Below are positions 14,053 through 63,116 of a stretch of 64,000 bases of DNA, in pieces. The stretch is from Patescibacteria group bacterium (GTDB lineage Bacteria > Patescibacteriota > Patescibacteriia > UBA10025 > JAHIVO01), in the NCBI GenBank assembly GCA_041650915.1, contig JBAZKE010000001.1, forward strand, positions 547,097 through 611,096, in the 5' to 3' direction. Position 1 is the first letter of the stretch. Each line of letters begins with the position of its first letter. The notes beneath the pieces are model-generated. The model searched no databases, was not told the origin of the DNA, and saw nothing but the letters and a program-made list of their open reading frames with translations. The position numbers were made by a program, and so were the translations under genes.

Positions 14053-15192
14053 GCGAGTACCTTATTGAGTTTTTTCACTTCTCTTTCCCACACGTAGGTG
14101 TTTTGGGCATGTTCCTTGCCTTGGCGTCCGAGTTTATGGGCATACTCCTTATCAGAAAGGATTTTCAAAATTGCTTCCGACAGTTCATGCGGGTCCTCCG
14201 GATTAATAAGGAGACCGGTTTGACCATCCTTGATCGCATCTGACACGCCACCAGTTTTTCCTCCAATGACTGGCTTGCCGAATAAATTTGCTTCGAGGTA
14301 AACCATTCCAAACCCTTCGACATCGATGACTTCTCCGCTCGAGTTTTTTAAAGCGCGTGAGGGCATGACAAAAACGCTCGAGCATCGATAAAAATACGGA
14401 AGTTCTTCATCCGATACTCGGTCAAATATTTTTACATATTCGTTGAGATGATTCTTTTTTATGAGCTCTTCGAGTATAGTCCGGTATGGCCCGTCTCCGA
14501 CGATGACGTACAGGAGGTTTGGAATTTTTTTAATAATCGACGGAAGTATCTTGAGGACAATATCGTGGCCTTTACGTTGTACGAGGTTACCGACGGTCAA
14601 GATTATTTTCTTGCCGTAAAAATTATGTTTATGGACTATGTAATCTAAGTATTGCTGATCGACATACGTGTCAACGAGGCCTTCTGGGGAAGGAAATACC
14701 GTTATAGTACGCCGAGGGTCCGATCCGAGCGTAATCGCTCTTGCCTGGGTATGGCTGCTGTTTGTGATGACGGCACTTGCATTTGATAGAATTTTTTTTA
14801 TAAGATACATTTTTCTGAATGATCTCCTCATGATGACAAGATCTTGCCCGTAAACATACACAAGGTATGGGATTTTATATCTTTTTTTTAATATGAGTGC
14901 AACGGTACCGATTGGTAAAATTTGGCCGACGTGAATCATCTGGATGCCCTCTCGTTCGATAATTGCTTTCAATTTTCTAAACAAAAAAATCCAACGCGGC
15001 CATACAAAAACTGATTCGCTTAGAACGCGCCGCCTGTAAATTTTCCAATCTGCAAGAGGTTCAAATTTTGATGGTTCAGTCAATACAACGATTTTATCAG
15101 GCGGCAGTTGGCTGCATACGTTCCAAAGAAATTTGCTGACCCCTCCACGGAGTGGCGGAAAGTAAAGGGTCACGAGCAGTGATTTTTTCATA
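14049..15192 (-). CDS. Glycosyltransferase, family 4.
   Basis: EGFGMVYLEANLFGKPVIGGKTGGVSDAIKDGQTGLL. The preferred start MKKSLLVTLYFPP has an ATG that overlaps the TGA stop of the wzx gene as ATATGA. The ORF track extends it to 15290. Confidence 0.7.
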
Positions 15193-16678
15193 TAAATTTC
15201 TTTAGTAGTGCATTGTAGAGCATAATGAAATCCGACCGTGTGACTCCCTTGAAAGCATAAAGTGCCGCAAAATAAACAATAGCTCCGCATGGAATAGAGA
15301 TGAATATTGATGTGCTATCTTTTAGCAGGAGAAGCACGATAGCCATGATTGACCCAGCAAGAAGTGCTTTCAAGAAAGCTTTAATGATTTTTTTACCATT
15401 GTACGGATTAATTTTACCGACCCACCGAAGCCCAAGGAAGAAAAGGACAAGGCCGCTTATGAGTGCGGCAGTTGCAGCACCATTGAATGAAAAACCGCGA
15501 ACCGCAACAAAATAAATATTAAGCGTTACGTTAATAAAAACGGTAATGCCCATGTTAATTGTGTTGACAACTTGCTTGTTGCATGCATTTAAAAACGCTC
15601 CGACGGGAAAGTTTAAAAAAATTACGACAAGTCCGACGATGAGTATCCGTAGCGGAATAATGGATGTTACGTAAGCCTCACCGGATATTTTAATAATGAG
15701 TTGGTCGGCCAATATAAAAATTCCAATAGAAATCGGGACCGCAATGACGGACAGATAGTGCATCGAGCGTTCGAATGTTTTCGCAAGCTTTTCTTTGGAG
15801 GAAATAAAGAATGCGCTCATTGCAGGGAAAATACTGATTGCAAATGCAGATGGGATAAATTCAAGAGCGTAAGTCAACTTATGGGAAACTGCATACCAGC
15901 CGACCGCACCTTGGCCTTCGACTATAAGCAGCATAAACCTATCAGTATAAGTATATATTTTTACAAAAATTGCCGTAATTGCAAATGGGAGCGCGGTTTT
16001 TATAAATGTTTTTATTATTGACATGTCCCAGCCAAAAGCGACCCGAATTTTTAATTTTTTTCTCAGCATTACATAAGAAAAAATAAAATTAAAGATGCTC
16101 CCAATGACAACTGCTACAAATAGTGCCTGTAATCCCCAATCAAATTTTAAGGATGCAACACCGAATAGGATTGTTAAAACTTGAGTCCCGATCATGCCGA
16201 GAGCTTCAAATTTCATATTCTGATGGCCGCGGAAGACTGCAAAAAAAGTTAAAGTGAAGGTGTCAAGAGCGACGATGAGCGCATCGAGGTATAATATTGT
16301 TTTGATCAGCTGCTGATTTTCCTCAAAACTGGAGAAGTTAGTGAAGAGGCCCATCCCGAGAATGATGATAAATGCGAAAATTGCTTTAACTGAAAGTACA
16401 TTAGAAAGATAATCTTCTGTTTTTTCCGGTTTGCGGGCAATTTCTCTGACAAGCACGACACTCAGGCTAAAATCAATGAGTATAAGTAAAATTGGGATCA
16501 GTGATTTTGCCGGGTCATACAGTCCAAAATCAACTGGTCCAATGACTCGGGCGATGTAAATGAAGTACACAAAAGACATGACCTTCTGTAGTACATATGC
16601 TACGGTCAGGTAACTTGTGTTCTTTAAAATCCTCTCTTGAGAATGGTGGCTGTCATTTTGTTGAGAGGGAGAGCCCAT
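15188..16678 (-). CDS. Polysaccharide flippase of the MOP/Wzx family.
   Basis: About 14 TM helices, with a typical Wzx N-terminus. Start M11 avoids overlap with rpsI; the ORF track start is 16708. Confidence 0.6.
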   Translation of the reverse strand: MGSPSQQNDSHHSQERILKNTSYLTVAYVLQKVMSFVYFIYIARVIGPVDFGLYDPAKSLIPILLILIDFSLSVVLVREIARKPEKTEDYLSNVLSVKAIFAFIIILGMGLFTNFSSFEENQQLIKTILYLDALIVALDTFTLTFFAVFRGHQNMKFEALGMIGTQVLTILFGVASLKFDWGLQALFVAVVIGSIFNFIFSYVMLRKKLKIRVAFGWDMSIIKTFIKTALPFAITAIFVKIYTYTDRFMLLIVEGQGAVGWYAVSHKLTYALEFIPSAFAISIFPAMSAFFISSKEKLAKTFERSMHYLSVIAVPISIGIFILADQLIIKISGEAYVTSIIPLRILIVGLVVIFLNFPVGAFLNACNKQVVNTINMGITVFINVTLNIYFVAVRGFSFNGAATAALISGLVLFFLGLRWVGKINPYNGKKIIKAFLKALLAGSIMAIVLLLLKDSTSIFISIPCGAIVYFAALYAFKGVTRSDFIMLYNALLKKFI

Positions 16679-16682
16679 CGGT

Positions 16683-17270
16683 TTATCGTTTTTGCCACTG
16701 CGGTGCACGCCTTGCCTTCTTTAATCCGTATTTTTTCCTTTCAACGACTCGAGGGTCACGGGTTAAAAGTTTTTGCGCTTTGAGGATCGGGCGACTATTT
16801 TTATCAATCTGCAATAGTATCCTGCTGATTCCAAGCCGAATACTCTCTGCCTGACCTCTCGTTCCGCCACCAGAAACTTTTATCGTATAGCGACCTTCCG
16901 TAAGTTTTCCGGTGAGTTTAAGCGGCTCTTTAATAATATTTTGAAATTGAAAGTACGGAAAATACTCACCGATCGGTTTACCGTTTATGATAATATCTCC
17001 TTGGCCATCCTTAAAAAAACGAACACGTGCGACCGCCGATTTACGCCTTCCAACAGAAAATTTGTATCCAAATTTTTTTTGTTTTGGCTTCGGCTGGATT
17101 TCCGCTTCAATATTTTCAATCGGTTGGGCGGCCCTTTTTTGCGGAATCAGAATATTCTTTTTGACAGCCTTCTTTTTCTGCGTCTTCGGCTTAGTAGATG
17201 TTCTAGGTAATTTTTTTACCTTCGTACCTGGCTTTTTGGAAATTTTGACTGTAGCTGATTTTATAGGCAT
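16683..17270 (-). CDS. rpsI: Ribosomal protein uS9 with a 65-aa Lys-rich N-terminal extension.
   Basis: The C-terminal 125 aa are canonical S9 (FSVGRRKSAVARV...GGGTRGQAESIRLGISRILL...DPRVVERKKYGLKKARRAPQWQKR). No ATG lies closer to the core. Confidence 0.8.
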   Translation of the reverse strand: MPIKSATVKISKKPGTKVKKLPRTSTKPKTQKKKAVKKNILIPQKRAAQPIENIEAEIQPKPKQKKFGYKFSVGRRKSAVARVRFFKDGQGDIIINGKPIGEYFPYFQFQNIIKEPLKLTGKLTEGRYTIKVSGGGTRGQAESIRLGISRILLQIDKNSRPILKAQKLLTRDPRVVERKKYGLKKARRAPQWQKR

Positions 17271-17659: not shown

Positions 17660-18010
17660 TTAAACAAACGTTAGTTTTACTGTCGGAGCGCCGTCTCCTT
17701 TTCGATTCCCGAGTTTAATTAGCTTCACATAGCCGCCTTTGCGTTCCTTATATGCTGGTGCAATATCTTTAATAATTTTTGTTGCGAGCGTATTACTTCC
17801 TAATGCTGTAATAAGTTGGCGGCGGGTTGCCAGCGTATCGGTTTTTCCGAGCGTAATAAGTTTTTCAATTTTTGATTTGATTACTTTTGCTTTTGTCTCG
17901 GTCGTGATGATGCTTCGGTGTTCAAAAAAAGAATAACACAAATTTTTAATAAGAGCCTTTCTATGTGAAGTGCCTCGATCTAAAGTTTTAGTTGTTTTTC
18001 GATGTCTCAT
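17660..18010 (-). CDS. rplQ: Ribosomal protein bL17.
   Basis: MRHRKTTKTLDRGTSHRKALIKNL...RKGDGAPTVKLTFV. Confidence 0.85.
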   Translation of the reverse strand: MRHRKTTKTLDRGTSHRKALIKNLCYSFFEHRSIITTETKAKVIKSKIEKLITLGKTDTLATRRQLITALGSNTLATKIIKDIAPAYKERKGGYVKLIKLGNRKGDGAPTVKLTFV

Positions 18011-18024
18011 GTAAAAACACTAAG

Positions 18025-18840
18025 TTATTCTTTTTTGGCTTTTACTTTTCTCTTTTTCTTTTTTTCTGGTTCTTCATTGATGGTTTCTTGTTCGCCAGAT
18101 TCAGTTTTGTCTTTCTTTGCTTTTTGCGTCGCAGGCGTTTGTTCTGCCGGCTGAATGCCAAAATTTGTAATTGCTTGGAAATGGTCTACCAGTATTGTAC
18201 TGGCTTCTTTCAATGCTTCCTCGGGAGTTATTGTGCCGTCAGTCGTAATGCTCATGATGACGCGATCGTAGTTTGTCATTTGTCCGACGCGTACGTTTTC
18301 AATGTTGTAATTAACATTTTTAATCGGCGTAAAAATCGAATCGATCGCAATGGTACCCAGAGGAAGTTTGTCCGTATCCATGTTTTCAACCTGGACGTAT
18401 CCTCTGCCAGCTTTTATGGTAAGTTCCATTTCAATTTCAGAATCTTTATCAGTAAGCGTAGCGATTTCCGCATCAGGGTTCGAAACTTCCGCTTCACTAG
18501 TGAGCTTGATATCTTTTGCAATAACCTTTTTTTGACCTTTTACCTTAAGTGTGGCTGTCGTTTCATCAGTACCGTGCAATTTGAATCCAATTTTTTTCAA
18601 ATTGAGGATTATTTCTACGATGTCTTCTTTAACTCCTGGAACTGTTGAAAATTCATGTGTGATACCTTTTATGCGAAAAGCGGTAATTGCAGCACCCGAC
18701 AACGAAGAAAGCAGTACGCGCCTGAGCGCATTACCAAGCGTATTGCCGTATCCAGGATAGCACGGTTCTATAATAAGATCTGCTTGGTGCTTGTCGGTGC
18801 TGTTCACCTGGTATTTATCTGGTAGTGGAAACGTTTCCAT
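18025..18840 (-). CDS. rpoA: RNA polymerase alpha subunit: N-terminal domain only, with a K/E-rich tail.
   Basis: The alpha-NTD signature GNTLGNALRRVLLSSLSGAAITAFRIKGITHEFS is present. The protein ends at 271 aa in QKAKKDKTESGEQE...KKKKRKVKAKKE, with no alpha-CTD helix-hairpin-helix. Confidence 0.8.
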   Translation of the reverse strand: METFPLPDKYQVNSTDKHQADLIIEPCYPGYGNTLGNALRRVLLSSLSGAAITAFRIKGITHEFSTVPGVKEDIVEIILNLKKIGFKLHGTDETTATLKVKGQKKVIAKDIKLTSEAEVSNPDAEIATLTDKDSEIEMELTIKAGRGYVQVENMDTDKLPLGTIAIDSIFTPIKNVNYNIENVRVGQMTNYDRVIMSITTDGTITPEEALKEASTILVDHFQAITNFGIQPAEQTPATQKAKKDKTESGEQETINEEPEKKKKRKVKAKKE

Positions 18841-18865: not shown

Positions 18866-19480
18866 TTATCGTGAATAAAATTCAATTATCATGGCAGTCT
18901 CAAACCCCTGGTTGAGCTCTTCTTTTGAAGGTGTACCGGTTATTTTGGCTTGAAGCTTGGAAATATCCTCAAACGTTAGCCACGATGGTAATTCCTTTAC
19001 TTTGATTGATTTTGAAATATCTCTAAAAAGAGGCTTAGTGATGCTCTTAGTTTTAATTTGCACAGAATCACCGGCACTAACGTGCAAAGAAGGAATTGTA
19101 TTTTTTCTTTGATTAACGAGTACGTGCCCATGGTTGACCATCTGCCGTGCGGCACTTCTTGTTTTAGCAATTTTTAATCTATACATTACATTATCGAGCC
19201 TCGTTTCAAGCAGCGTTACCAAATTCGCACCCGTATCTCCTTTCATCTGTTTTGCTTTATGGTAGTAGTTTCTGAATTGGCGCTCGAGTATCCCATAAAT
19301 TTTTCTCGCTTTTTGCTTTTCTCGGAGCTGCAGTCCGTATTCAGAGATTCTCTGCCTGCCTTTTGGCCCATGCATGCCAGGCCGATATGGCCGCTTGATA
19401 GCGGGACATTTAGGCGAGTCGCATAATCGCATGCCATATTGCCTGCAGAGTTTATGTTTTGGTTCTAAGTTTCTTCCCAT
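18866..19480 (-). CDS. rpsD: Ribosomal protein uS4.
   Basis: Starts MGRNLEPKHKLCRQYG (compare E. coli MARYLGPKLKLSRREG) and contains the S4 domain. The ORF track extends the start to 19531. Confidence 0.8.
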   Translation of the reverse strand: MGRNLEPKHKLCRQYGMRLCDSPKCPAIKRPYRPGMHGPKGRQRISEYGLQLREKQKARKIYGILERQFRNYYHKAKQMKGDTGANLVTLLETRLDNVMYRLKIAKTRSAARQMVNHGHVLVNQRKNTIPSLHVSAGDSVQIKTKSITKPLFRDISKSIKVKELPSWLTFEDISKLQAKITGTPSKEELNQGFETAMIIEFYSR

Positions 19481-19496
19481 AAAAGTATTTACTTCA

Positions 19497-19904
19497 TTAA
19501 ACCCGACGAACTTTCGGGGCGCGGCAGCCATTATGCGGGATCGGCGTCACGTCTTTTATTCCAACAACGGTGATATTATTCGCATTGAACGCACGAATAG
19601 CAGACTCTCTGCCGGATCCTACCCCTTTTACAAAAACATCCACGGTTTTAATACCGACAGCTTTTCCCTTTTCAGCAACATCAGCTACGATTGTACTTGC
19701 TGCATAGGGAGTTGCTTTTTTAGGACCTTTAAATCCTTTATGTCCCGCCGAAGACCAGGCGATAATATTTCCTTGCTGGTCTGCTATCGAAACGATAGTG
19801 TTGTTATAGGTTGCCTGAATATATGCCCTTCCGTGGCTGATGAAGGTCCGTTTTTTTTGCTTTGATTTCCGTTTAGGTTTAGTTTGCTTCGATGCTTTTT
19901 GCAT
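19497..19904 (-). CDS. rpsK: Ribosomal protein uS11.
   Basis: GRAYIQATYNNTIVSIADQQGN...SSAGHKGFKGPKKATPYAA. Confidence 0.85.
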   Translation of the reverse strand: MQKASKQTKPKRKSKQKKRTFISHGRAYIQATYNNTIVSIADQQGNIIAWSSAGHKGFKGPKKATPYAASTIVADVAEKGKAVGIKTVDVFVKGVGSGRESAIRAFNANNITVVGIKDVTPIPHNGCRAPKVRRV

Positions 19905-23988: not shown

Positions 23989-25293
23989 TTATAAATTATC
24001 TATAACTTCTTTAAGAAATTTCATTCTTGGAGAAACAAATTCATCCTGGGTAATTCTAGAAGCCGCATACATTGCATTTTGTGTTTTATGTTTTTGCCGG
24101 TGCTGGTATTTTCTTGGATAGTTATTTTCGATGCTTCCATTAGGAAGTATAAATACGCTGTATTTTTTTAGCATTTCAATTAAGCTCACTTCCGGTTCTG
24201 TAAATCTCATCTGAATTTTTTTCTGAATAATATTAAGGCCGGTATCATAAAGAGCATCGCGATCAAGTAAAACACAGTATGGCAAATCAAAAAGATCAAG
24301 AACATCCGTATATACGTCAATATTACTCTTACCGTAAACTTGGATTACCTTAATATCTTTTGTACCAGTATAAAATTTATTAATTAATTCCCGCATTAAA
24401 ATGTGATCAGACGGTCCTTCCACGAGCAGGACTTTATCCGCAAAAAACATTTCAGTATTATCGGCATTAAGCTCCTGTCTCAGTCTCTCGTAATTTATCC
24501 TTTTTCCGGTGAGTCTTGGAGAGTGAACTTTAGTAGTGTCACCTTCTTTTGTTACGCGAAAAATTCGGTGTAAATTTTCTGGACGAACGAAATTTGTCGA
24601 GTGGGTCGTTAAAAAAATTTGATTATCCAGGTTTCTTTCCTCCAAAATACTTATAAGTTTCTTAATAAGTGCTGGATGGAGGTGCACTTCAGGTTCTTCG
24701 AGTAATAAAACGGAGTATACTGGGTGGAAGAGGTACAAGAGTATTTTAAAAACCTGCCGAAATCCCGCACCGAGGCGCTCGTAGGGGCGCGTGGCGCCTT
24801 CATGCTCAATCGTGCTTGAAGTGAACAGTTTTCTATCGATCATAATTTGGGGAATGTACTGCTGCAATGTACGATGAAACAGCTCAAATTGATCGGGATA
24901 TTGTACTACTAAACTCTCAAAATCATGCTGCACTTTTTGAATTGAAAGATGATCAGTGGCGCATATTCTTACCATACGGCTAGATAGAATTTCCTTGCCT
25001 TTGTCAGGTGAAATTTCTTTGTCATCAAGCAAAAATTTTGTAAGATCCGCGAGTTGTACCACGTCGAGTATGCTTTTTTTTCGATCGAGCGTCAGACTAA
25101 AACTAGCATGAATATCACACTCTGGATCATGAAGCCGGATGCTGTTTCCGTTGTAAAGCCTGTAGATTGAATCTAAAATGTTTGTTTTGCCTGCATTATT
25201 TGCCCCAATAAAAATATGCAGAATACCCAGGTCATGCAGAACCAGTTTTTTTATGCTCTTATACCTGTTGATGGTGATTTTTTCAAGACGCAT
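23989..25293 (-). CDS. Compact OLD-family nuclease: ABC-type ATPase fused to a TOPRIM domain.
   Basis: Walker A is FIGANNAGKTNILDS. Walker B is VLLLEEPEVHLHP, with an H-loop at TTHS. The C-terminal TOPRIM has KVLLVEGPSDHIL (catalytic Glu) and a DxD in VLLDRDALYD. Confidence 0.7.
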   Translation of the reverse strand: MRLEKITINRYKSIKKLVLHDLGILHIFIGANNAGKTNILDSIYRLYNGNSIRLHDPECDIHASFSLTLDRKKSILDVVQLADLTKFLLDDKEISPDKGKEILSSRMVRICATDHLSIQKVQHDFESLVVQYPDQFELFHRTLQQYIPQIMIDRKLFTSSTIEHEGATRPYERLGAGFRQVFKILLYLFHPVYSVLLLEEPEVHLHPALIKKLISILEERNLDNQIFLTTHSTNFVRPENLHRIFRVTKEGDTTKVHSPRLTGKRINYERLRQELNADNTEMFFADKVLLVEGPSDHILMRELINKFYTGTKDIKVIQVYGKSNIDVYTDVLDLFDLPYCVLLDRDALYDTGLNIIQKKIQMRFTEPEVSLIEMLKKYSVFILPNGSIENNYPRKYQHRQKHKTQNAMYAASRITQDEFVSPRMKFLKEVIDNL

Positions 25294-25304: not shown

Positions 25305-25757
25305 TTACGCATACAGTTTATAAAAAAAATCTTCCAATGCGCTACGTTGTGCTTGGTTTGGACTGATTTTAGTTCTCTTTTTTTTAATTCTTTTTATCGC
25401 ATCTTGAGGCGTAAGACCGTAGTGAAGAATATAGTATGCTGCAACTAAAGTTGGCGCGCGTCAGCGTCCTTCGTTACAATGAACATAGCAGCGCATTTTT
25501 TGTGCAATGAGGTCTTCAATAAAATGTGATCCGATCATGAGCTGCACAGGAGACGGAGCAGTAAAATCAACTGTCGGAAGCCACAAAAATGATTCAACGC
25601 CTGATGGTGAATCTTCTTTTTCCTGCTGAAGGTCAATATCAGCTTTAATCCCCTTTTTTAAAAGCAACTCAAAATGTTTTTTACAGCAAATGCTGGTGCC
25701 GATATACAAGTACGGTTCGATGCGCGTATAGTTCAAATGGCGTTCGTTGGTTGTCAT
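25305..25757 (-). pseudogene. Dual-specificity (Cys-based, CX5R) protein phosphatase gene interrupted by one in-frame TGA in the P-loop.
   Basis: The ORF 25461-25757 ends ...YVHCNEGR then TGA. Reading through in the same frame continues RAPTLVAAYYILHYGLTPQDAIKRIKKKRTKISPNQAQRSALEDFFYKLYA then TAA at 25305. The readthrough reconstitutes a canonical 150-aa DSP (HCxxGx[G]R + AYLM-like helix). The TGA occupies the conserved Gly position, so it is one substitution from GGA. Confidence 0.6.
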
Positions 25758-25850: not shown

Positions 25851-27644
25851 CTAATCTAGCTGGATTTTTTGTCCTGGTTGGATTGGTTTACCTGGTTGTG
25901 CATGTGTTTCTGGAATGGATTTTCGGGCTTTATGCTGAAAAGGTTTATTCGTCCGAAGCATCGTCGGTGAAGACTTCATTGTATGATCAGTTATCTTACC
26001 CCTGCTCTTAAACGGTTTGGGTTGCATTGAAAACGCTTCGCTTAGTGAAATTTCTTTTTCCGGGCCTTGGACACTAACAGTTTCAAGATCACGAATAGGT
26101 ATATATTCCTTTTTTTTCTTTTCCGGTGGAAGTTTAGAAATTTTACTTATTTCAGGAGCAGAAAATGAGCGAATTGGAGGCGGATTTTGGCCATTCTTTT
26201 TTTGTGAAGCGTGGATTTTTTCAACAAATTGGTTATCCGCTTCTGCCATTGCCTTATGCATTTCGTGAACTCCGCTCCAGCGCATGATTTTATCTTCAAC
26301 AAGCTCTCGTGATTTACTATACCGTTCGCGTGAAACACTTAAAATTTTATTCTTGTTATTAGTTTTGCCTGTAAGCGGAGGCAGTGTTTTTGCGGAAAAA
26401 GGTTCTGAAGCTACCCCGTCTATCATCAGCTTCATGTAAACATTATACTTCGTTAAATTAAGAAGATCCTCCTCCATAAAAATCGGATAAAATTCTTTCG
26501 CAAGAAATTCAGCATCGGCGGCTCCGACGCGAAAACAGACAATAGTACCGATATTACCGAATACCGCGGCACGGACAGTCTCATCAAGCTGCTCGACGTA
26601 TTGATGGGCGATTATTAAATTAAGCCTGTATTTTCGCGCTTCCGATAAAATGCTCGCGAAGCTTTCAGTGGCAAAATTTTGGAATTCATCTACATACAGG
26701 TAGAAATCCTCTCGCTCATTTTCTGGTATATCGACTCTGCTCATCGCTGCGAGTTGGAGCCTGGTAATCATCATGGCACCGAGCAGAGATGAACTGTCTT
26801 CTCCGATTCTACCTTTCGAAAAATTAAGCAAAAGAATCTTTTTGTTATCCATTATTTCACGCAAATCAATGGTGCTTTTTGGCTGACCGACGATATTACG
26901 GATAACAGAACTCGATAAGAATTGCCCAACCTTATTCTGGATTGGGGCAATTGCCTCATTTCGAAATCGGTCATTATATCCGGCATATTCATCAACCCAA
27001 AAACTTTTTACAATCGGATCCGTGACTTTATCGATGACCTTCTTTCTATACTTTTTATCGACGAGAATGCGGGAAATACCGAGCATTGTCGAGCCTGGAT
27101 ACTCGAGCAGTGCAAGTATGCAATTATTGAGGATATATTCCATTCGGGCGCTCCATACCCCTTCCCATATTTTTGTAAAGACGCCCATGAGCCCAGATGC
27201 AACAAGGTGGCGCTGGTCGGGATCGACATTTTCCAGAACATTAAATCCGATGGGATACTCCAGGTCTGCCGGATTGAAATAGACCACATCATTAACCCGG
27301 TATGATGGTATGTAGTCGATAACCTTTTCAACGAGATCGCCATGCGGATCAACGAGCGCCAAACCCCGGCCTGCGCGAATATCCGAAATGACCATGTTTT
27401 CAATCACGGTTGTTTTTCCCATGCCTGTCTTGCCAATCAGATACATATGCCGACGCCTATCATCAACTCTAATGCCGAATTTTCGTGCTAAATTTCGAAA
27501 ATTCGTTTCGGCGAAGGGTGTTATTTCTCTTTCGAGGTCGGCTGTCATGGTTGTATTAAGCTGTCGGTAAATTTGGCGGCGGTACTCCTTTTTGTTCTGC
27601 AGGTGGCATGGCAATCCGCCCAAGCCTCTCCGGTGCTTGCTCAA
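25851..27644 (-). CDS. TrwB/TraD/VirD4-family (type IV coupling protein-like) P-loop ATPase: soluble, with a long basic disordered C-terminal tail.
   Basis: HMYLIGKTGMGKTTVIENMVISDIRAGRGLALVDPHGDL parallels TrwB Walker A plus the VIVDPNGD box. Walker B is FYLYVDEFQNF. There is no N-terminal TM. The start could be M33 at 27548. Confidence 0.55.
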   Translation of the reverse strand: MSKHRRGLGGLPCHLQNKKEYRRQIYRQLNTTMTADLEREITPFAETNFRNLARKFGIRVDDRRRHMYLIGKTGMGKTTVIENMVISDIRAGRGLALVDPHGDLVEKVIDYIPSYRVNDVVYFNPADLEYPIGFNVLENVDPDQRHLVASGLMGVFTKIWEGVWSARMEYILNNCILALLEYPGSTMLGISRILVDKKYRKKVIDKVTDPIVKSFWVDEYAGYNDRFRNEAIAPIQNKVGQFLSSSVIRNIVGQPKSTIDLREIMDNKKILLLNFSKGRIGEDSSSLLGAMMITRLQLAAMSRVDIPENEREDFYLYVDEFQNFATESFASILSEARKYRLNLIIAHQYVEQLDETVRAAVFGNIGTIVCFRVGAADAEFLAKEFYPIFMEEDLLNLTKYNVYMKLMIDGVASEPFSAKTLPPLTGKTNNKNKILSVSRERYSKSRELVEDKIMRWSGVHEMHKAMAEADNQFVEKIHASQKKNGQNPPPIRSFSAPEISKISKLPPEKKKKEYIPIRDLETVSVQGPEKEISLSEAFSMQPKPFKSRGKITDHTMKSSPTMLRTNKPFQHKARKSIPETHAQPGKPIQPGQKIQLD

Positions 27645-28965
27645 GTGGCAGGTCTATCGGTGCTTGTGCTTTCTTCGAATCAACTTTTTGCACGGACGGT
27701 ACTTTAACGTCGATAATCGGAAAGTGCCATATCGTCGCGAGTTCTTCGATATTGAGAACATAATTTTTCCGTCCCCTCCATAAACTCCGATAGCGGTAAG
27801 ACCAGAGTAGCCGCCGTTTTCTAGCTAATAACCTTGATTTTGCAAATAAAAATTTTGCCCTTGAAAATGTTTTCATATCTGGTCTGAATCCATTTGTATT
27901 CTGCGCGGCAAACTGATGAACAGTTCCGATAACGCCATCGAGTCCTTTTGAAAGCTGGGCGTTCTTTTTTTTTGCTCCGTAAATCATCCGCAGTTTTGAT
28001 TCATATCCAATTTTTGAAATTTTCATTCCTATCGCCTCGACAATATCCCGCTCTGCCGGTGATAAGTGCTGCATTTGGCTTGGCCAGTCCTGTATATTAC
28101 GCTGGCGTTGTGGCCCTTCCATTTCAGTAGGAGGTATTATTGAAGCGGTGAATGATTCTGACAATCCTTTCCCAATTTCTCTCGGAAAATAAAGCCAATC
28201 GGCGACCGATTTTGCGCCATCTTTTTTACCAATAAGTTTATTGATAAGCGATATACCTTTTTGCTTCCAATCTTCTGTGACCGGAGAAATGACTAGCTGA
28301 TACCAAAGATGCTCACCCGGACCCATTCTGCTCAGTATCTCCATGAGAGAAGCCATCGGATCTAAAAACTTTTGTGATAGGCTGTGTTCAAAATTCGGGT
28401 ACGTCTTAATCGGATAAAGATAATTATGGGCAAGCTTGAATTCCGTTCCCCAGACGTCGTATTCGGGATGGGGCAACTCAAGCGGTTTCGGAAGCATATC
28501 GATGTAATCTTCGACTTCCGTGATTTCTGCTTCAGGGTATTGGGCATAAATCGCGGCTTCAACTAGATCTCTGAATTTTACCGGGGTTCGTATTAGAAAT
28601 TGAATATATCCTTCAATGCTGACGATTTCCAGGCTGACCCCGAGCTGAGTTTTCCCTTCGACAAATCTTTCATACAAATCGTACGTTCGAATAAATCCAA
28701 AAATATGCGAAAATATATGTTCGACAGCTTTCGGGCTCTGCTCGTTGCCCCGGGGGATATCAATAGCAAGCAGGACAAAAGGTATTTTTGACTGATACTT
28801 ATTCTGTATATAAAGTACCCAACCTTCCCAACCGCCCCATAGGGAAACGATAATAACTATAATCCAGCCCCCGTGCAAAAATAAAAAAAACATAGCACCA
28901 AAGGGGCTGCCAACATCGGGAAATAAAGTAAGTGCTTGATCTGGTCCTACGACAAATGGATTCAT
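27556..28965 (-). CDS. Hypothetical membrane-anchored protein (N-terminal TM helices plus a roughly 400-aa soluble domain). It is the partner of the coupling-protein-like ATPase.
   Basis: The N-terminus FGAMFFLFLHGGWIIVIIVSLWGGWEGWVLY is hydrophobic. There are no recognisable catalytic motifs, and the C-terminus is basic. It lies 15 bp downstream of the regulator gene and abuts the ATPase gene. Confidence 0.4.
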   Translation of the reverse strand: MNPFVVGPDQALTLFPDVGSPFGAMFFLFLHGGWIIVIIVSLWGGWEGWVLYIQNKYQSKIPFVLLAIDIPRGNEQSPKAVEHIFSHIFGFIRTYDLYERFVEGKTQLGVSLEIVSIEGYIQFLIRTPVKFRDLVEAAIYAQYPEAEITEVEDYIDMLPKPLELPHPEYDVWGTEFKLAHNYLYPIKTYPNFEHSLSQKFLDPMASLMEILSRMGPGEHLWYQLVISPVTEDWKQKGISLINKLIGKKDGAKSVADWLYFPREIGKGLSESFTASIIPPTEMEGPQRQRNIQDWPSQMQHLSPAERDIVEAIGMKISKIGYESKLRMIYGAKKKNAQLSKGLDGVIGTVHQFAAQNTNGFRPDMKTFSRAKFLFAKSRLLARKRRLLWSYRYRSLWRGRKNYVLNIEELATIWHFPIIDVKVPSVQKVDSKKAQAPIDLPLEQAPERLGRIAMPPAEQKGVPPPNLPTA

Positions 28966-28980
28966 GTTGATCGTAGTTTG

Positions 28981-30102
28981 CTAGGATGGGACAGCAAGAC
29001 TGTACGTACCATCCTCATTTTTTTTGAATTTTGTTTTATCCGTAAGAGCAAGATGAATCGTATTTTTTTTAACGATTCTTTGTTCGAGCACTTTCTCAAC
29101 AAGCTGCGATCGAGTTAACGATTCGCTAGATCTATTGAGAATGTCAATCAGTACATTGGAAACAACGCCAGGTTTATAACCCCACTCTTTCAGTGCATAG
29201 ATTCCTCGTCCGACGAGAACATATCTGCTGTTGAGAATAAGTTCATTGTGCACCGTGGGCGGATAGGCTTTACGGGTATCAAATTTGACTTCGTTTATTT
29301 TTTGAGCAATCTCTGTAAAGTGCATTGGTTTCCCATGCCGCTTTAAAACCAGATAAATTTTATCATTCATTCTTTTTGGAACAATGCTGCCCCATTCCTT
29401 CAACCCAAATTCATCAAATGGATTTCTTGATATACTATTGCTCATATTCAAGTATGACGTAACAGCTTCCTCGGTAAGCAACTGCGGATTATGTTTAAAT
29501 AAATCTGTTTCCTTAAATTGCGAAAGAATCGAACTTATTGTTGCCGGCTTGCCATTTTTTGCGATAGTATCGAAGAGCGTCTTAATAGAATCTCTTATTA
29601 AATGTATCGGGGCATGAGAAAGCTGCCAGGATTGCTTAAAAACTTCATCGGGTCTTATAGTTTTAAATTTCTTTTTTAAAAGTTCTGAAATAACAAATAA
29701 AATATTTTGCCGGTTCATTTGGCTGTCGCCTACGACCTGTAAAAGTTCAGCGAGCAGATCGTTTTCTTCCATGGCCGCACCGTGTTGTTCGAGAACCGAA
29801 TAAACAGTATTTTCGATCGAAGCGATAAGTTCATTGAAGTTTTTAAGCTGGCTAATTTTTTGTATAGCGGTTTTTTCAATTTGACGAATTCTTTCCCTGG
29901 TAACTTTATAGGTCGCACCGATTTCTTCGAGAGTCTCTTTTTCTTTCCCGAGTAATCCGAATCTGCGACGAAGAACATCTTCTTCGCGTGTAGTAAGGGC
30001 CTTTAAGAGCTGAGAGACGGTATCGCTTGGATTGAACTGCTCGATTTGATTTGTTTTTTTACTGGAGATAACCTTATCCAGTATTGAATTTCCCTCTTCC
30101 AT
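28981..30102 (-). CDS. Putative transcription factor: N-terminal sigma-70 region 4 (4.1-4.2 HTH) and a C-terminal HARE-HTH-like winged helix.
   Basis: Residues about 35-90, DTVSQLLKALTTREEDVLRRRFGLLGKEKETLEEIGATYKVTRERIRQIEKTAIQKI, closely resemble RpoD region 4. The C-terminal KIYLVLKRHGKPMHFTEIAQKI...NSRYVLVGRGIYALKEWG resembles the HARE-HTH of the RNAP delta subunit and restriction enzymes. Confidence 0.5.
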   Translation of the reverse strand: MEEGNSILDKVISSKKTNQIEQFNPSDTVSQLLKALTTREEDVLRRRFGLLGKEKETLEEIGATYKVTRERIRQIEKTAIQKISQLKNFNELIASIENTVYSVLEQHGAAMEENDLLAELLQVVGDSQMNRQNILFVISELLKKKFKTIRPDEVFKQSWQLSHAPIHLIRDSIKTLFDTIAKNGKPATISSILSQFKETDLFKHNPQLLTEEAVTSYLNMSNSISRNPFDEFGLKEWGSIVPKRMNDKIYLVLKRHGKPMHFTEIAQKINEVKFDTRKAYPPTVHNELILNSRYVLVGRGIYALKEWGYKPGVVSNVLIDILNRSSESLTRSQLVEKVLEQRIVKKNTIHLALTDKTKFKKNEDGTYSLAVPS

Positions 30103-30143: not shown

Positions 30144-30172
30144 AGTATAGCATACTTTTATTATTGTGTCAA
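30144..30172 (-). promoter_or_regulatory. Near-consensus sigma-70 promoter for the sigma-r4/HARE-HTH regulator gene.
   Basis: On the minus strand: TTGACA (complement of 30167-30172), 17 bp, then TATACT (complement of 30144-30149). This lies about 40 nt upstream of the ATG at 30102. Confidence 0.45.
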
Positions 30173-30266
30173 GATAATTCATCGTTGTAACATATTTTTT
30201 AATTTTAAGCAAGTGAACTATGGAAAAAAAAATCGCCCCATTTACGAAACGAATCTAGCAACGTTT

Positions 30267-53059: not shown

Positions 53060-53078
53060 CTTTTAATTGCAGTGTATA

Positions 53079-54458
53079 TCAAATTACAGCAAGCAATCTG
53101 CCGCTGACGTCTGTAATCGTGCCTGCGCCCATCGTGATCACGACGTCTCCTCTTTTCTTCCGCGCCGTAAAGTGCTTGATCGCATCGTTAAAATTTTTCG
53201 CATAGTGCACTGGCTGGTTCCGTTTGCCTATTTCTGCTGCAAGATCCTTTGCAGTCCGTTTGGCTTTCAATTCCCTTCCTGCAACTTTATAGGTATCCGT
53301 AATAATAAGCTGGTCGCAATCGGTAAATGCGCCTCTGAAGGATGTAAAAAGCGATTCAGTACGGTGTGCGCTATGGGGCTGAAAAATGCACCAAATCCTC
53401 CTGTTCGCAAAAAAATCTTTTGCCGTCCGGAGGGTTTCTTTAATTGCAGTCGGATGATGAGCGTAATCATCCACGACGGTAATCCCGTTTTTGGTTCCTT
53501 TAATTTCAAAACGCCTGGCGGCTCCGCCATAGGATCGCAAACCGGCTGCAATGTGTTCAGTGCGTATTCCGAACATATAGGCAAGTGACGCTGCAGCGAG
53601 GGCATTTAAAACATTATGCCTGCCGTGCTGCAGTATGGAAAGATCAAATTTATCAATACCAGACACTGAGAACAACGTAAATTTATCTTTCCGTAAAATA
53701 TTCGTTACGTGCAAATCGCCAAACCCAATGCCGTATGTGATAATCTTGCACGGAGCGCCTTCGACAGCGCGGATCGAGTTACTGTCCATGATATTTACCG
53801 CGATGCAGCCTCCGCGTGGCATCCGCTTGATGAGCGCCTTGAATGCGCGTACGATAGCTTCTTCATCTTTATAGACATCGAGGTGGTCTGCTTCAATGTT
53901 ATTTACGATCAAGCCGTATGGCCGGTAGCTGTGAAAAGCCTTTTTATATTCATCGCCTTCGATGATAAAGTGCCGTCCGAGGCCGACGCGAGCATTGCCT
54001 TGAAACGCATCAATGTGTGCACCGACTATGACAGTAGGATCCAGCCCGGCAGCGATTAAAATATGAGCCAGCATCGAAGTAGTCGTGCTTTTGCCATGAG
54101 TACCCGTTACGACAAGCTGAATATAGGATTTCATCAGCTGCCCCATAAACTCAGGGTAGGTCAACGATGGGATCCCGAGCTTTTGTCCCTTTTTTAGTTC
54201 GGGATTATCCGATGCTAGAGCGTTTGAAAATACGATTAAGTCCGCATCTTTGGGCACGTTCGAAGCGCTATGTTTTCCAATAATACAAGTAATCCCCTCT
54301 TTATTGAGCTGCCTGGTCAGTCCTGTTTGCGTGATGTCTGAACCGGTAACCCGCATTCCAAATGCATGAGAAATACGTGCAGCCGCAGAAATTCCTATCC
54401 CGCCAATTCCAATAAAATGAATGGCATGGCATTTTTCAAGTTGTACTATTTTTTGCAT
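53079..54458 (-). CDS. murC: UDP-N-acetylmuramate--L-alanine ligase.
   Basis: HFIGIGGIGISAAARI and VTGTHGKSTTTSM, a Mur ligase P-loop. Confidence 0.85.
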   Translation of the reverse strand: MQKIVQLEKCHAIHFIGIGGIGISAAARISHAFGMRVTGSDITQTGLTRQLNKEGITCIIGKHSASNVPKDADLIVFSNALASDNPELKKGQKLGIPSLTYPEFMGQLMKSYIQLVVTGTHGKSTTTSMLAHILIAAGLDPTVIVGAHIDAFQGNARVGLGRHFIIEGDEYKKAFHSYRPYGLIVNNIEADHLDVYKDEEAIVRAFKALIKRMPRGGCIAVNIMDSNSIRAVEGAPCKIITYGIGFGDLHVTNILRKDKFTLFSVSGIDKFDLSILQHGRHNVLNALAAASLAYMFGIRTEHIAAGLRSYGGAARRFEIKGTKNGITVVDDYAHHPTAIKETLRTAKDFFANRRIWCIFQPHSAHRTESLFTSFRGAFTDCDQLIITDTYKVAGRELKAKRTAKDLAAEIGKRNQPVHYAKNFNDAIKHFTARKKRGDVVITMGAGTITDVSGRLLAVI

Positions 54459-61382: not shown

Positions 61383-63116
61383 ATGCTGCCAAATAAAGAA
61401 ATTCAATTGATTCTATCTCAGAGCGATATTATTGAAAAAGATCAGCTTAATGATGCTATTAAAAAAGTGAGCGAGGAAAATTCGGATTTTACCCAATATA
61501 TCATAGAAAAAAATCTCGTATCCGAAAATGTGCTCTTTGAAACGATAGCAAATTACTACAAACTGCCTTTCATCGACCTCAGGCGGAGTACGATCAGAAA
61601 AGATATTCTCATGACTATTCCTGAGACGATCGTTCAAACGTACCAAATTGCCGCCTATGATAAAAATGAAACCGACCTCCAAGTCGCAACCGTAGATCCC
61701 AAAAATCTCCAAATAATTGATTTTCTCAGAAAAAAAACAGGGTTAAAAATAAAAGTCGCCGTAACGACTTTTTCAAGCATAAAAGAAGTAATTTCCCAGT
61801 ACCATAAAGGCCTTTCGTCAGAATTTAAAAAAATTTCAAAAGGCGAAGTCGATACAGCGGACGGCTCTCAGCAAGCAGACCTAAAACAACTTGCACAGGA
61901 CCTCCCGATTGTACGCATAGTTGATACGCTGCTCGAATACGCCATTTTCGAGGGAGCCTCAGATATTCATATTGAACCGACTGAAAAAGATTTAGCGATA
62001 CGATACCGCATCGACGGCATTCTGCGCGAAGTCATGCGGCTGCCCAAAAAACTGCAACCCGGTGTTACTGCGAGAATTAAAATTTTATCGAATTTAAAAA
62101 TCGATGAGCATCGTCTTCCCCAGGATGGGCGTTTTAAAATTTCCACTTCAGAATATAAAATTTCATTTCGCGTATCAATAATTCCCGTGTTCGATGGCGA
62201 AAAAATCGTTTTGCGCCTGCTCAATGAATCCAGCAAAATTTTGACGCTTGAACAAATAGGTTTTCAGCTGAAAGCCCTTGAAATAGTAAACGCGAATACG
62301 AAAAAACCACAGGGAATGATATTGGTAACAGGCCCGACCGGCAGCGGAAAAACGACCACACTCTATACACTGATGAATATGGTCAATGACCCTGGCGTTA
62401 ACATCGCAACGATCGAGGATCCGATTGAGTACCGTATGCCGCGCGTTAACCAAAGCCAGGTCAACCCTCGGATCGGTTTTACGTTTGCCGGCGGACTTCG
62501 GGCACTCTTACGCCAGGATCCAAATATTATTATGGTTGGAGAGATACGCGATGGGGAAACTGCTGAAATTGCGACTCATGCTGCGATGACCGGCCACCTC
62601 GTGCTCTCAACACTCCATACGAATGATGCAGTTACGACTCTCCCCCGTCTTGAGGAGATGGGCGTCCCCCCGTTTTTAATTGGGTCAACGACCAATGTCG
62701 TTATTGCGCAGCGACTTGTCAGAAAAATATGCATGAACTGCATTCATAGTTTCACTCTTTCAAAGAAGGCGATTGATGAACTGAAAAAAAAGGTTAATAT
62801 TGATTCTATTATTAAAGTTCTCGAACAGCAGGGCATTATCCTTTCGTCGGAAACTCCTGTCGAATCGCTCCTTTTTTACGAAGGAAAGGGCTGCAAGCAG
62901 TGCAACGGCTCAGGATATAAAGGAAGAATGGGCATTTTTGAGGTGCTTGAGATTACAGATACTATTGCAAGGCTCATCACTGAAAAAGCGCCAGAGCAGA
63001 CAATATTAGCGGAAGCAAGAAAAAATGGAATGCTCACCATGATAGAAGACGGCTTTATTAAAGCAAAAAATGGTGCGACCTCCATTGCAGAAGTGCTTCG
63101 CGTAACCAAAGATTAA
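61383..63116 (+). CDS. pilB: Type IV pilus / type II secretion assembly ATPase (GspE/PilB family).
   Basis: VTGPTGSGKTTTLY Walker A, the GEIRD box and the tetracysteine CMNC...CKQCNGSG. A consensus promoter lies upstream. Confidence 0.85.
   Translation: MLPNKEIQLILSQSDIIEKDQLNDAIKKVSEENSDFTQYIIEKNLVSENVLFETIANYYKLPFIDLRRSTIRKDILMTIPETIVQTYQIAAYDKNETDLQVATVDPKNLQIIDFLRKKTGLKIKVAVTTFSSIKEVISQYHKGLSSEFKKISKGEVDTADGSQQADLKQLAQDLPIVRIVDTLLEYAIFEGASDIHIEPTEKDLAIRYRIDGILREVMRLPKKLQPGVTARIKILSNLKIDEHRLPQDGRFKISTSEYKISFRVSIIPVFDGEKIVLRLLNESSKILTLEQIGFQLKALEIVNANTKKPQGMILVTGPTGSGKTTTLYTLMNMVNDPGVNIATIEDPIEYRMPRVNQSQVNPRIGFTFAGGLRALLRQDPNIIMVGEIRDGETAEIATHAAMTGHLVLSTLHTNDAVTTLPRLEEMGVPPFLIGSTTNVVIAQRLVRKICMNCIHSFTLSKKAIDELKKKVNIDSIIKVLEQQGIILSSETPVESLLFYEGKGCKQCNGSGYKGRMGIFEVLEITDTIARLITEKAPEQTILAEARKNGMLTMIEDGFIKAKNGATSIAEVLRVTKD

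Follow-up and report, generated by a model that had tools for sequence, protein, structure and literature searches.

Two adjacent genes in a 64-kb stretch of DNA from a Patescibacteria group bacterium (contig JBAZKE010000001.1, positions 547,097 to 611,096; the whole stretch is called the window below) raise the question of what a coupling protein-type ATPase without a membrane domain does in these cells and what the membrane protein encoded directly upstream of it contributes. An earlier note on this DNA had placed two open reading frames (ORFs) between positions 25851 and 28965 of the minus strand, where we also find them, and had read them as an orphan TrwB/TraD/VirD4-like ATPase and a large membrane-anchored partner that together resemble a split coupling protein. 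Our analysis indicates, with a probability of about 0.75, that the two genes encode the halves of one type IV coupling protein (T4CP) motor of a DUF8128-type subfamily. Three independent lines of evidence, namely the adjacency of the genes, their natural fusion, and the occurrence of the same module outside the phylum, lead us to treat the pair as one unit with the following two parts.

27556 to 28965, minus strand: putative DUF8128 subunit (PF26449), the membrane-anchored N-terminal half, 469 aa
25851 to 27548, minus strand: putative ATPase half of the split coupling protein (565 aa), in which a T4CP nucleotide-binding domain with an all-alpha insertion precedes a basic tail

The gene pair corresponds to the two halves of a fused paralogue

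Homologues of the 469-aa partner were collected by scanning one genome per species. At least 579 genomes gave a match, the best 80 loci were fetched, and the 77 of them with downstream room were used to count adjacency. The ATPase gene lay directly downstream of the DUF8128 gene in 57 of the 77 loci, and the longest ORFs of the pair were separated by a median of 3 nt (range, -65 to +168 nt). The word "orphan" is thus misleading for what is a conserved chromosomal pair.

Several of the fetched loci also carried fused paralogues of ~850 aa, in which a transmembrane segment, a DUF8128 domain, and an ATPase follow one another in one chain. The window partner matched residues ~90 to 415 of the fused paralogue by phmmer (E-values of 1e-20 to 1e-22), and the window ATPase matched residues ~420 to 850 with 371 to 407 bits. 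Profile comparison by hhalign of the partner with residues 1 to 405 of the fused protein gave an E-value of 2.6e-39. The alignment stops at partner residue 437, equivalent to fused residue 405, and the partner sequence KKAQAPIDLP aligns with the fused interdomain linker RKAPAPVNIP; because of this match, the break between the two genes coincides precisely with the domain boundary. When one fused paralogue was used to search a database, more than 2,000 such proteins were retrieved, all with PF26449 and T4CP domains. Split and fused forms were found on the same contigs (e.g., loci L015, L016, L046, and L063), and this coexistence fits the published number of about two T4CP homologues per genome.

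The fused paralogue, represented by P0389 (L016:27-2585, annotated as a [quoted passage not shown]), shares the module order and the types of catalytic motif with the window pair. It differs in being one polypeptide without the long basic tail. Its surroundings also differ, with a small acidic protein of ~175 to 180 aa encoded upstream and DnaX further downstream. No type IV secretion system (T4SS) gene was seen near the fused paralogue, whose neighbors are housekeeping genes. In two loci (L084:9456-9998 and L085:9472-9996), the ~175- to 180-aa protein is a conserved soluble protein encoded 2 to 4 nt 5' of the fused paralogue. Its N-terminal half is acidic and disordered, and its C-terminal part is helical and conserved (..WLKxIPGxNxFFLEQEAKIK..); the protein belongs to no Pfam family and may be an adaptor.

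The ATPase is of the coupling protein type

The longest ORF of the ATPase gene (25851 to 27644) opens with TTG and encodes 597 aa. An ATG at 27548, located 7 nt past the TAA of the partner gene, yields 565 aa, and the NCBI-annotated protein P0121 is a 565-aa ATPase with 100% identity. This ATG is the likely start. The TTG at 27644 was considered and dropped; it would create an 89-nt overlap with the partner gene, and both the public annotation and the orthologues begin at the equivalent of 27548. The following segments, all on the minus strand, were located in the 565-aa protein.

27411 to 27434, minus strand: Walker A GKTGMGKT (residues 39 to 46), aligned with Walker A of TrwB
27336 to 27353, minus strand: T4CP-typical VDPHGD box (residues 66 to 71), aligned with VDPNGD of TrwB
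26673 to 26702, minus strand: Walker B YLYVDEFQNF (residues 283 to 292), aligned with the LFIDE segment of TrwB
26598 to 26645, minus strand: SEARKYRL...IIAHQY segment (residues 302 to 317), aligned with GRKAGLR...GLQ of TrwB
25854 to 26213, minus strand: basic low-complexity C-terminal tail (residues 446 to 565)

The hallmarks on which the earlier note had relied (GKTGMGKT, VDPHGD about 20 aa further on, and YVDEFQNF) were all present and aligned with those of TrwB. VDPHGD begins 20 aa past the end of Walker A, and the Walker B sequence YLYVDEFQNF is invariant in the fused paralogues. The SEARKYRL...IIAHQY segment is a candidate arginine-finger and sensor region, with residue roles transferred from what is known of TrwB.

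The ATPase had also been described as having a soluble N-terminus and a basic C-terminal tail, and both properties were found. No transmembrane segment was detected (maximum Kyte-Doolittle value, 1.31 over all 19-residue windows), and the last 166 aa contain 32 K+R versus 19 D+E. Among 120 orthologues, the net charge of the tail was positive in 116, and the median tail length was 116 aa. The tail of the window protein contains ISLSEAF at residues 500 to 506 (nt 26031 to 26051) and ends in IQPGQKIQLD (nt 25854 to 25883). Across the orthologues, the conserved motifs are ISLSEAL..P.PF and the C-terminal L.PGQ.V.F, and the rest of the tail is variable. Four or more Cys residues were present in the tail of 10 of the 120 orthologues, and the one that was scanned, P0196, contains a treble-clef zinc finger (zf_Tbcl_2).

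Pfam comparison, which the earlier note had recommended, placed two coupling protein models above their cutoffs: TrwB_AAD_bind with 45.1 bits (cutoff, 20.5; residues 28 to 336) and TraG-D_C with 25.4 bits (cutoff, 22). T4SS-DNA_transf scored 19.6 bits, slightly below its cutoff of 20.1, and DUF87 scored 26.8 bits (cutoff, 23.2). These family matches lie well outside what chance would give. No Pfam match of the window ATPase to AAA_10, CagE_TrbE_VirB, or FtsK_SpoIIIE was obtained. The possibility that FtsK or HerA would prove the better relative was not borne out, since the DUF87/HerA score lies below that of TrwB_AAD_bind and FtsK gave no match. The top NCBIfam matches were TraD and VirD4-like CD1115, and VirB4_plasma scored 12 bits. 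In sequence searches of the PDB, TrwB came first and DotL second, followed by HerA when a profile was used; VirB4 was never matched by the ATPase in the PDB sequence and profile searches. Because Pfam, NCBIfam, and the PDB all place TrwB, TraD, VirD4, or DotL first, the ATPase is, as judged from its sequence, of the coupling protein type and not of the FtsK or HerA type.

The partner carries DUF8128 and a single membrane anchor

The upstream gene had been described as encoding a transmembrane-anchored protein of 469 aa with no recognizable domain. The first part of this description was confirmed by one hydrophobic stretch and one long helix. The second part has to be revised; the protein carries DUF8128, the N-terminal module of a T4CP subfamily. 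This family belongs to the newest Pfam (PF26449), and the assignment comes from precomputed annotation, both of P0001, which is identical in sequence, and of nearly all the homologues listed. The structure was modeled with AlphaFold (predicted local distance difference test [pLDDT], 80.7; predicted TM-score [pTM], 0.75), and folds were searched with Foldseek against the PDB. Three regions were distinguished.

28786 to 28905, minus strand: long single helix that includes the predicted transmembrane anchor (AlphaFold helix, residues 21 to 60)
27730 to 28785, minus strand: alpha/beta domain whose predicted fold resembles the VirB4 N-terminal domain (residues 61 to 412; AlphaFold and Foldseek)
27559 to 27684, minus strand: predicted disordered C-terminal tail (residues 428 to 469; pLDDT, <50)

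Hydropathy analysis placed the sole hydrophobic stretch at about residues 20 to 53, and the partner would thus supply the membrane anchor that the ATPase lacks, as the earlier note had supposed, in the form of one transmembrane helix. By the positive-inside rule, the large domain would lie in the cytoplasm and the N-terminus outside, because the N-terminus is acidic and the sequence following the helix, QNKYQSK, is basic. The alpha/beta domain contains a near-invariant NxEELAxxxHFP motif. Conserved positions also occur in the C-terminal tail (P436/P440 and P463/N465/L466/P467), which ends in PPxNLP. The partner family comprises 3,180 clusters at 50% identity.

The same subfamily provides the T4CP of conjugation clusters in other phyla

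Relatives outside the Patescibacteria were sought among plasmids by tblastn and compared by hhalign. The ATPase matched 343 plasmid records, including those of Streptomyces, Bacillus, Staphylococcus, Clostridium, haloarchaea, and Sulfolobus. The partner matched the N-terminus of "DUF87 domain-containing proteins" of Bacillus and Shouchella plasmids. Three plasmid loci were compared with the window pair.

Embleya sp. plasmid NZ_CP108778: 812 aa, fused; hhalign over the full length, probability of 100%, E-value of 1.5e-50, 716 columns
Shouchella clausii plasmid NZ_CP012476: 883 aa, fused; hhalign over the full length, E-value of 3e-38
Natronorubrum aibiense plasmid NZ_CP045489: 395 aa plus 1014 aa, split; the 395-aa protein is DUF8128-like, hhalign probability of 99.1%, E-value of 1e-18

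The Embleya gene lies in a cluster with PrgI/VirB3 and a VirB4-type ATPase encoded upstream and Replic_Relax and NlpC/P60 downstream, and the window ATPase is 31% identical to its 812-aa product (E-value of 9e-62). The neighbors of the Shouchella 883-aa protein are Replic_Relax, TcpC, TcpE, and an ATP-binding protein. Both of these T4CPs are fused, plasmid-borne, and located inside T4SS clusters, whereas the window pair is split, chromosomal, and without such neighbors. The Natronorubrum locus resembles the window in having a DUF8128-like gene directly 5' of a T4CP gene; the 395-aa gene runs past the start of the 1014-aa gene (annotated as a "TraM recognition domain-containing protein"), whose product is 28% identical to the window ATPase at 76% query coverage. 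Unlike the window pair, it is archaeal and plasmid-borne and adjoins a gene for a conjugal transfer protein of 1100 aa. Its ATPase is acidic at the N-terminus and carries a long extension at the C-terminus, features that the window ATPase does not share, and its 395-aa protein has no obvious transmembrane helix in the first 100 residues.

When the N-terminal domain alone was compared by hhalign, the matches were still significant, with probabilities of 94.3% for Embleya and 98% for Shouchella, and the window partner family gave 97% with Shouchella. Five unrelated T4SS proteins taken as controls (the N-termini of Agrobacterium tumefaciens VirB4 and of TrsE, TrsD, PrgI, and the Embleya VirB4-like ATPase) each remained below 1%. 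From this full-length homology to the T4CPs of conjugation clusters, the window pair is, at the sequence level, the split version of a T4CP subfamily that supplies the T4CP gene of monoderm and archaeal conjugation clusters. With the natural fusion and these full-length homologues, the split coupling protein first suggested for this locus is better founded than when it was proposed.

The closest relative of the ATPase outside the Patescibacteria was a 395-aa protein (L089:7986-9173) encoded on the Sulfitobacter mediterraneus plasmid NZ_CP081110, with 39.9% identity (E-value of 6e-94). This ATPase-only gene is flanked by genes for a DUF3768 protein and a transposase, and no N-terminal module is annotated upstream of it.

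The predicted architecture resembles VirB4 and the motor resembles T4CPs

When the partner model was compared with the PDB by Foldseek, all 13 matches at E-values of ≤0.001 were TrwK/VirB4 of R388 (best E-value, 6.6e-6). Rank 14 was again VirB4 (E-value of 0.011), and the next family was an ESX component (E-value of 0.013). The AlphaFold model of the fused paralogue (pLDDT, 83.3; pTM, 0.71) aligned with full-length VirB4 over ~900 to 940 columns (E-value of 4.5e-14) at a global TM-score of ~0.3. Its ATPase half aligned with TrwB at a TM-score of 0.62 and a root mean square deviation of ~5.4 Å. An all-helical block lies between core strands at residues 512 to 626 of this model, which represents the paralogue and not the window protein. 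HerA structures ranked under VirB4, TrwB, and DotL for the fused model.

Sequence comparison did not reveal the same relationship. The sequences used for comparison included VirB4 of the A. tumefaciens Ti plasmid and TrsD, TrsE, and TrsK of pGO1. Neither phmmer nor profile searches of the PDB detected similarity between DUF8128 and VirB4-related sequences, and hhalign detected none with A. tumefaciens VirB4, the pGO1 TrsE N-terminus, TrsD, Embleya PrgI, or the Embleya VirB4-like ATPase. Only the P-loop region aligned with A. tumefaciens VirB4 and pGO1 TrsE by hhalign. Because the hhalign comparisons were negative, homology of DUF8128 to TrsD was considered no further. Searching the ORFs of the fetched loci by jackhmmer with A. 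tumefaciens VirB4 retrieved nothing, a weak negative since the T4CP-like ATPases were missed as well. Comparison of the fused profile with pGO1 TrsE and TrsK by hhalign did not separate VirB4 from T4CP, single-sequence templates being too weak for this purpose. These results suggest that the modeled DUF8128 domain resembles the N-terminal fold of VirB4, and this is the weakest link in our analysis because the global TM-score is low and sequence similarity is lacking.

The models thus depict an architecture like that of VirB4, an N-terminal domain followed by an ATPase, around a motor that by sequence is a coupling protein. The pair would share with VirB4/TrwK a membrane-near N-terminal alpha/beta domain followed by a RecA-like ATPase, and differs from it in that the window ATPase matches T4CP models and not VirB4 profiles. 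With TrwB of R388, VirD4, and TraD, it shares the nucleotide-binding domain with an all-alpha insertion, and Walker A, VDPxGD, Walker B, and RK...Q align. By contrast, TrwB has its own N-terminal domain with two transmembrane helices and no DUF8128, and the identity is ~17 to 18%. The acidic tail of TraD binds TraM, whereas the tail of the window ATPase is basic.

An N-terminal transmembrane domain in the same polypeptide, as TrwB has it, is absent from the window ATPase, and one transmembrane helix would come from the separate partner. T4CPs that lack this domain and act with membrane partners are an accepted class (class iii of Llosa and Alkorta, and TraJ/TraI of pIP501; cited in PMC7431656). 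The architecture of the window pair fits that of TraJ/TraI, in which a soluble T4CP needs a separate membrane protein to make up a VirD4-like complex. The difference is that the DUF8128 partner is more than an anchor, having a conserved domain of ~350 aa that is covalently joined to the T4CP in the paralogues and in the relatives from other phyla.

The pair is conserved across the Patescibacteria

More than 8,000 homologues of the ATPase and more than 2,700 of the partner were found in databases, and the named ones were all from Patescibacteria. Among the best 80 loci, those with informative titles were nearly all from this phylum (Kerfeld-, Kuenen-, Buchanan-, Magasanik-, Uhr-, and Falkowbacteria, and Paceibacter). 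The gene order YkuD-SecD-SecF-(sigma-r4/HARE-HTH)-DUF8128-ATPase...MnmA-AlaRS was conserved. Median conservation was 1.21 bits per residue for the ATPase, 0.94 for SecD, and 0.70 for AlaRS, and the ATPase exceeded SecD in 26 of 27 loci and AlaRS in all 10 compared. A phage-borne element was considered and rejected after 2.9 million viral contigs yielded one partial match only. These results indicate that the pair is a strongly conserved chromosomal core gene set, usually found alongside a fused paralogue, and not part of a mobile element, and that the pair in the window is an ordinary member of this phylum-wide set.

Many species-representative metagenome-assembled genomes titled "uncultured Gammaproteobacteria bacterium" (L009, L010, L022, L023, and others, several with binchicken isolate names) carry the typical locus. 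These titles look like placeholders because the loci show the typical Patescibacteria synteny. Acutalibacteraceae (L034) and Binatia (L047) contigs also carry the locus and may be mis-binned. In one sub-lineage (L022, L024, L028, L037, L045, L051, L055, L058, and L080), DUF8128 is followed by another, conserved block and not by the ATPase gene. The block encodes a glycosyltransferase and proteins of ~800 to 965 aa, ~640 to 690 aa, and ~365 to 385 aa, the last with a Tgt-like N-terminal PFxMPDATRGF. The same block occurs in L038 without the glycosyltransferase ORF.

Part of this picture was already known: the ATPase is annotated as a T4SS DNA-binding-domain protein, and the surplus of unlinked T4CP homologues in the phylum has been published. 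The word "transmembrane" is absent from the main text of that publication, and its passages on T4CPs contain neither domain architecture nor a partner gene (PMC12102498). No mention of DUF8128 or PF26449 was found in the papers searched. The link between DUF8128 and coupling proteins, the split and fused forms, the actinobacterial, firmicute, and archaeal conjugation clusters, and the VirB4-like fold are new, in that we found no published description of them.

Proposed function and alternative explanations

The partner is predicted to span the membrane with one helix, its N-terminus outside, and to expose a cytoplasmic alpha/beta DUF8128 domain of ~350 aa. We propose that this domain would bind the ATPase as it does in the fused paralogue and that the complex may form a membrane-tethered, probably hexameric, ATP-driven ring. 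Such a ring would recruit a macromolecular substrate and drive it up to a membrane channel or through it. DNA or nucleoprotein would be the most likely substrate: the basic tail with its two motifs, the zinc finger in at least one orthologue, and the upstream gene for a DNA-binding-type protein are pointers to a nucleic acid, not proof. The most likely channel would be a monoderm-type T4SS encoded elsewhere in the genome, where most Patescibacteria have a full system of this type (PMC12102498).

The earlier note had suggested a repurposed translocation ATPase or a reduced T4SS-like apparatus, and the 64 kb examined give support to neither. Several points weigh against the motor that we propose. 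As the earlier note had stated, no VirB4, VirB6, relaxase, or pilin was found in the 64-kb window, which covers part of a contig of 679,916 bp from a metagenome-assembled genome. The underlying Pfam scan covered nearly all ORFs of at least 120 aa, including 15188 to 16708, and left aside 926 to 1387, 17992 to 18648, 19374 to 19865, and 53067 to 53588, which lie across annotated genes of the opposite strand or of a different frame. In 20 of the 77 loci, DUF8128 has no ATPase gene behind it, and adjacency is thus not universal. The basic tail gives no more than a hint of nucleic-acid binding. Against an obligatory role in a T4SS, T4CP homologues occur across the phylum in 2,918 of 3,035 genomes (96%) at about two per genome, VirB4 in 2,417 (80%), and relaxases in only ~100 (PMC12102498). 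In Southlakia, moreover, the T4CP homologue was dispensable and the T4SS essential (PMC12102498; PMC10633639). Redundancy between the split and fused forms could explain this dispensability, and a single knockout may show no phenotype because the split pair and the fused paralogue usually coexist and may be redundant.

Part of the same evidence favors a housekeeping membrane DNA translocase that works without a T4SS, for example in DNA import for nucleotide scavenging or in chromosome handling at division, and that has only its ancestry in common with T4CPs. The gap between the prevalence of T4CP homologues and that of VirB4 points this way, as do the location of only 148 of 5,713 homologues near virB4 and the exaptation that the authors themselves raised (PMC12102498). 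So do the housekeeping synteny, the conservation of the ATPase above SecD and AlaRS, the absence of T4SS genes from the window and from the surroundings seen of the fused paralogue, the basic tail with a zinc finger in at least one orthologue, and the DNA-binding-type protein encoded directly upstream. However, ordinary systems often have T4CP genes unlinked from virB4 (PMC12102498), and the prevalence gap could come from two copies per genome combined with incomplete metagenome-assembled genomes. In addition, a T4SS-independent translocase has no evident channel partner, the DUF8128 protein having one transmembrane helix, and competence in Southlakia needed ComEC and not the T4CP homologue. 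Also counting against such a translocase, papers on the saccharibacterium TM7x reportedly mention FtsK. A T4SS-independent translocase is therefore a serious but tentative alternative; a role with and a role without a T4SS seem roughly equal, with a slight edge for the T4SS because of the coupling protein ancestry. A more far-reaching version, which we consider unlikely, holds that an old DUF8128-type lineage shared by Patescibacteria, Actinobacteria, Firmicutes, and Archaea has kept a VirB4-type N-terminal domain, making it an architectural intermediate between VirB4 and VirD4, and that the duplicated chromosomal copies of the Patescibacteria, split and fused, left conjugation to become a T4SS-independent translocase of DNA or nucleoprotein. 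An equally speculative example of such a role would be the import of host-derived DNA in organisms unable to make nucleotides.

The remaining explanations are much less probable than a coupling protein motor in either setting. That the pair is a non-functional leftover of a decaying integrated conjugative element, split by mutation, might be suggested by plasmid T4CPs being the nearest relatives outside the phylum and by an OLD-family defense gene and an interrupted phosphatase gene adjoining the pair. Yet the split form occurs in at least 579 species-representative genomes with intact ORFs and invariant catalytic motifs, the ATPase is among the most conserved genes of the neighborhood, the window shows an even GC content and neither an integrase nor a relaxase nor a repeat boundary, and the OLD gene is a lineage-specific insertion confined to the two closest loci; decay of this kind is very improbable. 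Much the same holds for an anti-phage defense ATPase of the MADS or HerA type acting with a defense partner, which we find hard to credit. Its best argument is a PADLOC mad8 match of 57.7 bits on the ATPase, accompanied by weak HerA matches and by the OLD/GajA-like gene two genes downstream, past the interrupted phosphatase ORF. The mad8 match is confined to the ATPase domain, the partner has no PADLOC match, and no other MADS gene was present among the five neighboring proteins scanned; moreover, the pair is phylum-wide with housekeeping synteny, whereas defense genes are patchy, and most orthologous loci lack the OLD gene. mad8 was the best PADLOC match of the ATPase and exceeded its Pfam T4CP score, which suggests that mad8 is itself a coupling protein-like ATPase. 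Least credible of all is an unrelated membrane protein that is kept next to the ATPase by synteny without a shared function. The 20 loci without adjacency would agree with this, and so would the broad housekeeping synteny, which is kept here whatever the function. However, both modules form one polypeptide in thousands of proteins from this phylum and beyond it, the archaeal split form has overlapping stop and start codons, and the break point coincides with the interdomain linker.

If the two genes encode a split coupling protein motor, then DUF8128 is the N-terminal half of coupling motors, fused or split, and thousands of hypothetical proteins acquire a role. Patescibacteria make up a large share of bacterial diversity and live as epibionts, and nearly all have about two coupling protein homologues far from T4SS genes. 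The same architecture occurs in culturable hosts of conjugative plasmids (Actinobacteria, Firmicutes, and haloarchaea), which offer tractable systems. Should the VirB4-like fold of DUF8128 be real, it would bear on the origin of coupling proteins from VirB4/FtsK/HerA stock.

Neighboring genes and other features of the window

The gene directly upstream of the pair is preceded by sites that resemble a promoter and a terminator.

28981 to 30102, minus strand: 373-aa protein with sigma-70 region 4 and HARE-HTH (Pfam), 15 nt upstream of the partner gene
30144 to 30172, minus strand: candidate promoter-like TTGACA-17-TATACT with TG extension
30233 to 30252: terminator-like hairpin downstream of secF, followed by the promoter-like site

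The 373-aa protein has sigma-70 region 4 at residues 32 to 83 and HARE-HTH at about residues 244 to 307, the latter resembling the N-terminal part of the delta subunit of RNA polymerase, and lacks sigma regions 1 to 3. It scored 40.8 bits with TIGR04567 (cutoff, 42). Directly 5' of DUF8128, a sigma-r4/HARE-HTH gene was found in 43 of the 77 loci and SecF in 25, and this gene is probably in the same operon as the pair. The arrangement suggests a three-gene operon, and the operon boundary is only suggested because shuffled sequence contains promoter- and terminator-like sites at least as often.

The other genes of the window encode RseP, RRF, HolB, MreB, a glycosyltransferase/Wzy block, ribosomal proteins, RpoA, AlaRS, MnmA, SecD, SecF, SecA, UPF0182, and a dcw block (MraY, MurD, FtsW, MurG, MurC, and MurB). 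Neither tRNA genes nor a GFTLIE-type prepilin motif was found in the window.

Downstream of the ATPase gene, a dual-specificity phosphatase gene (Tc-R-P/DSPc; 25305 to 25757, minus strand) has an in-frame TGA at 25461 to 25463 within the catalytic HCxxGxxR loop (HCNEGR-TGA-RAPT), and the frame runs on for 51 codons past it. Because TGA is the ordinary stop of 7 of 51 window genes, the interruption marks a pseudogene, reflects an error of sequencing, or is read through. It is followed by an OLD-family ATPase-TOPRIM gene (23989 to 25293, minus strand; PADLOC Old, 122.8 bits), which is GajA-like and has no obvious GajB partner. An OLD gene is present at this site only in the two closest relatives (L004 and L005), and for this reason we regard it as a lineage-specific insertion; distant relatives have a GT2-methyltransferase block there. 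Finally, a gene for a PilB-like type IV pilus assembly ATPase (61383 to 63116, plus strand; T2SSE, 429.8 bits, with MshEN) lies at the window edge, and a pilus gene cluster may continue beyond it.

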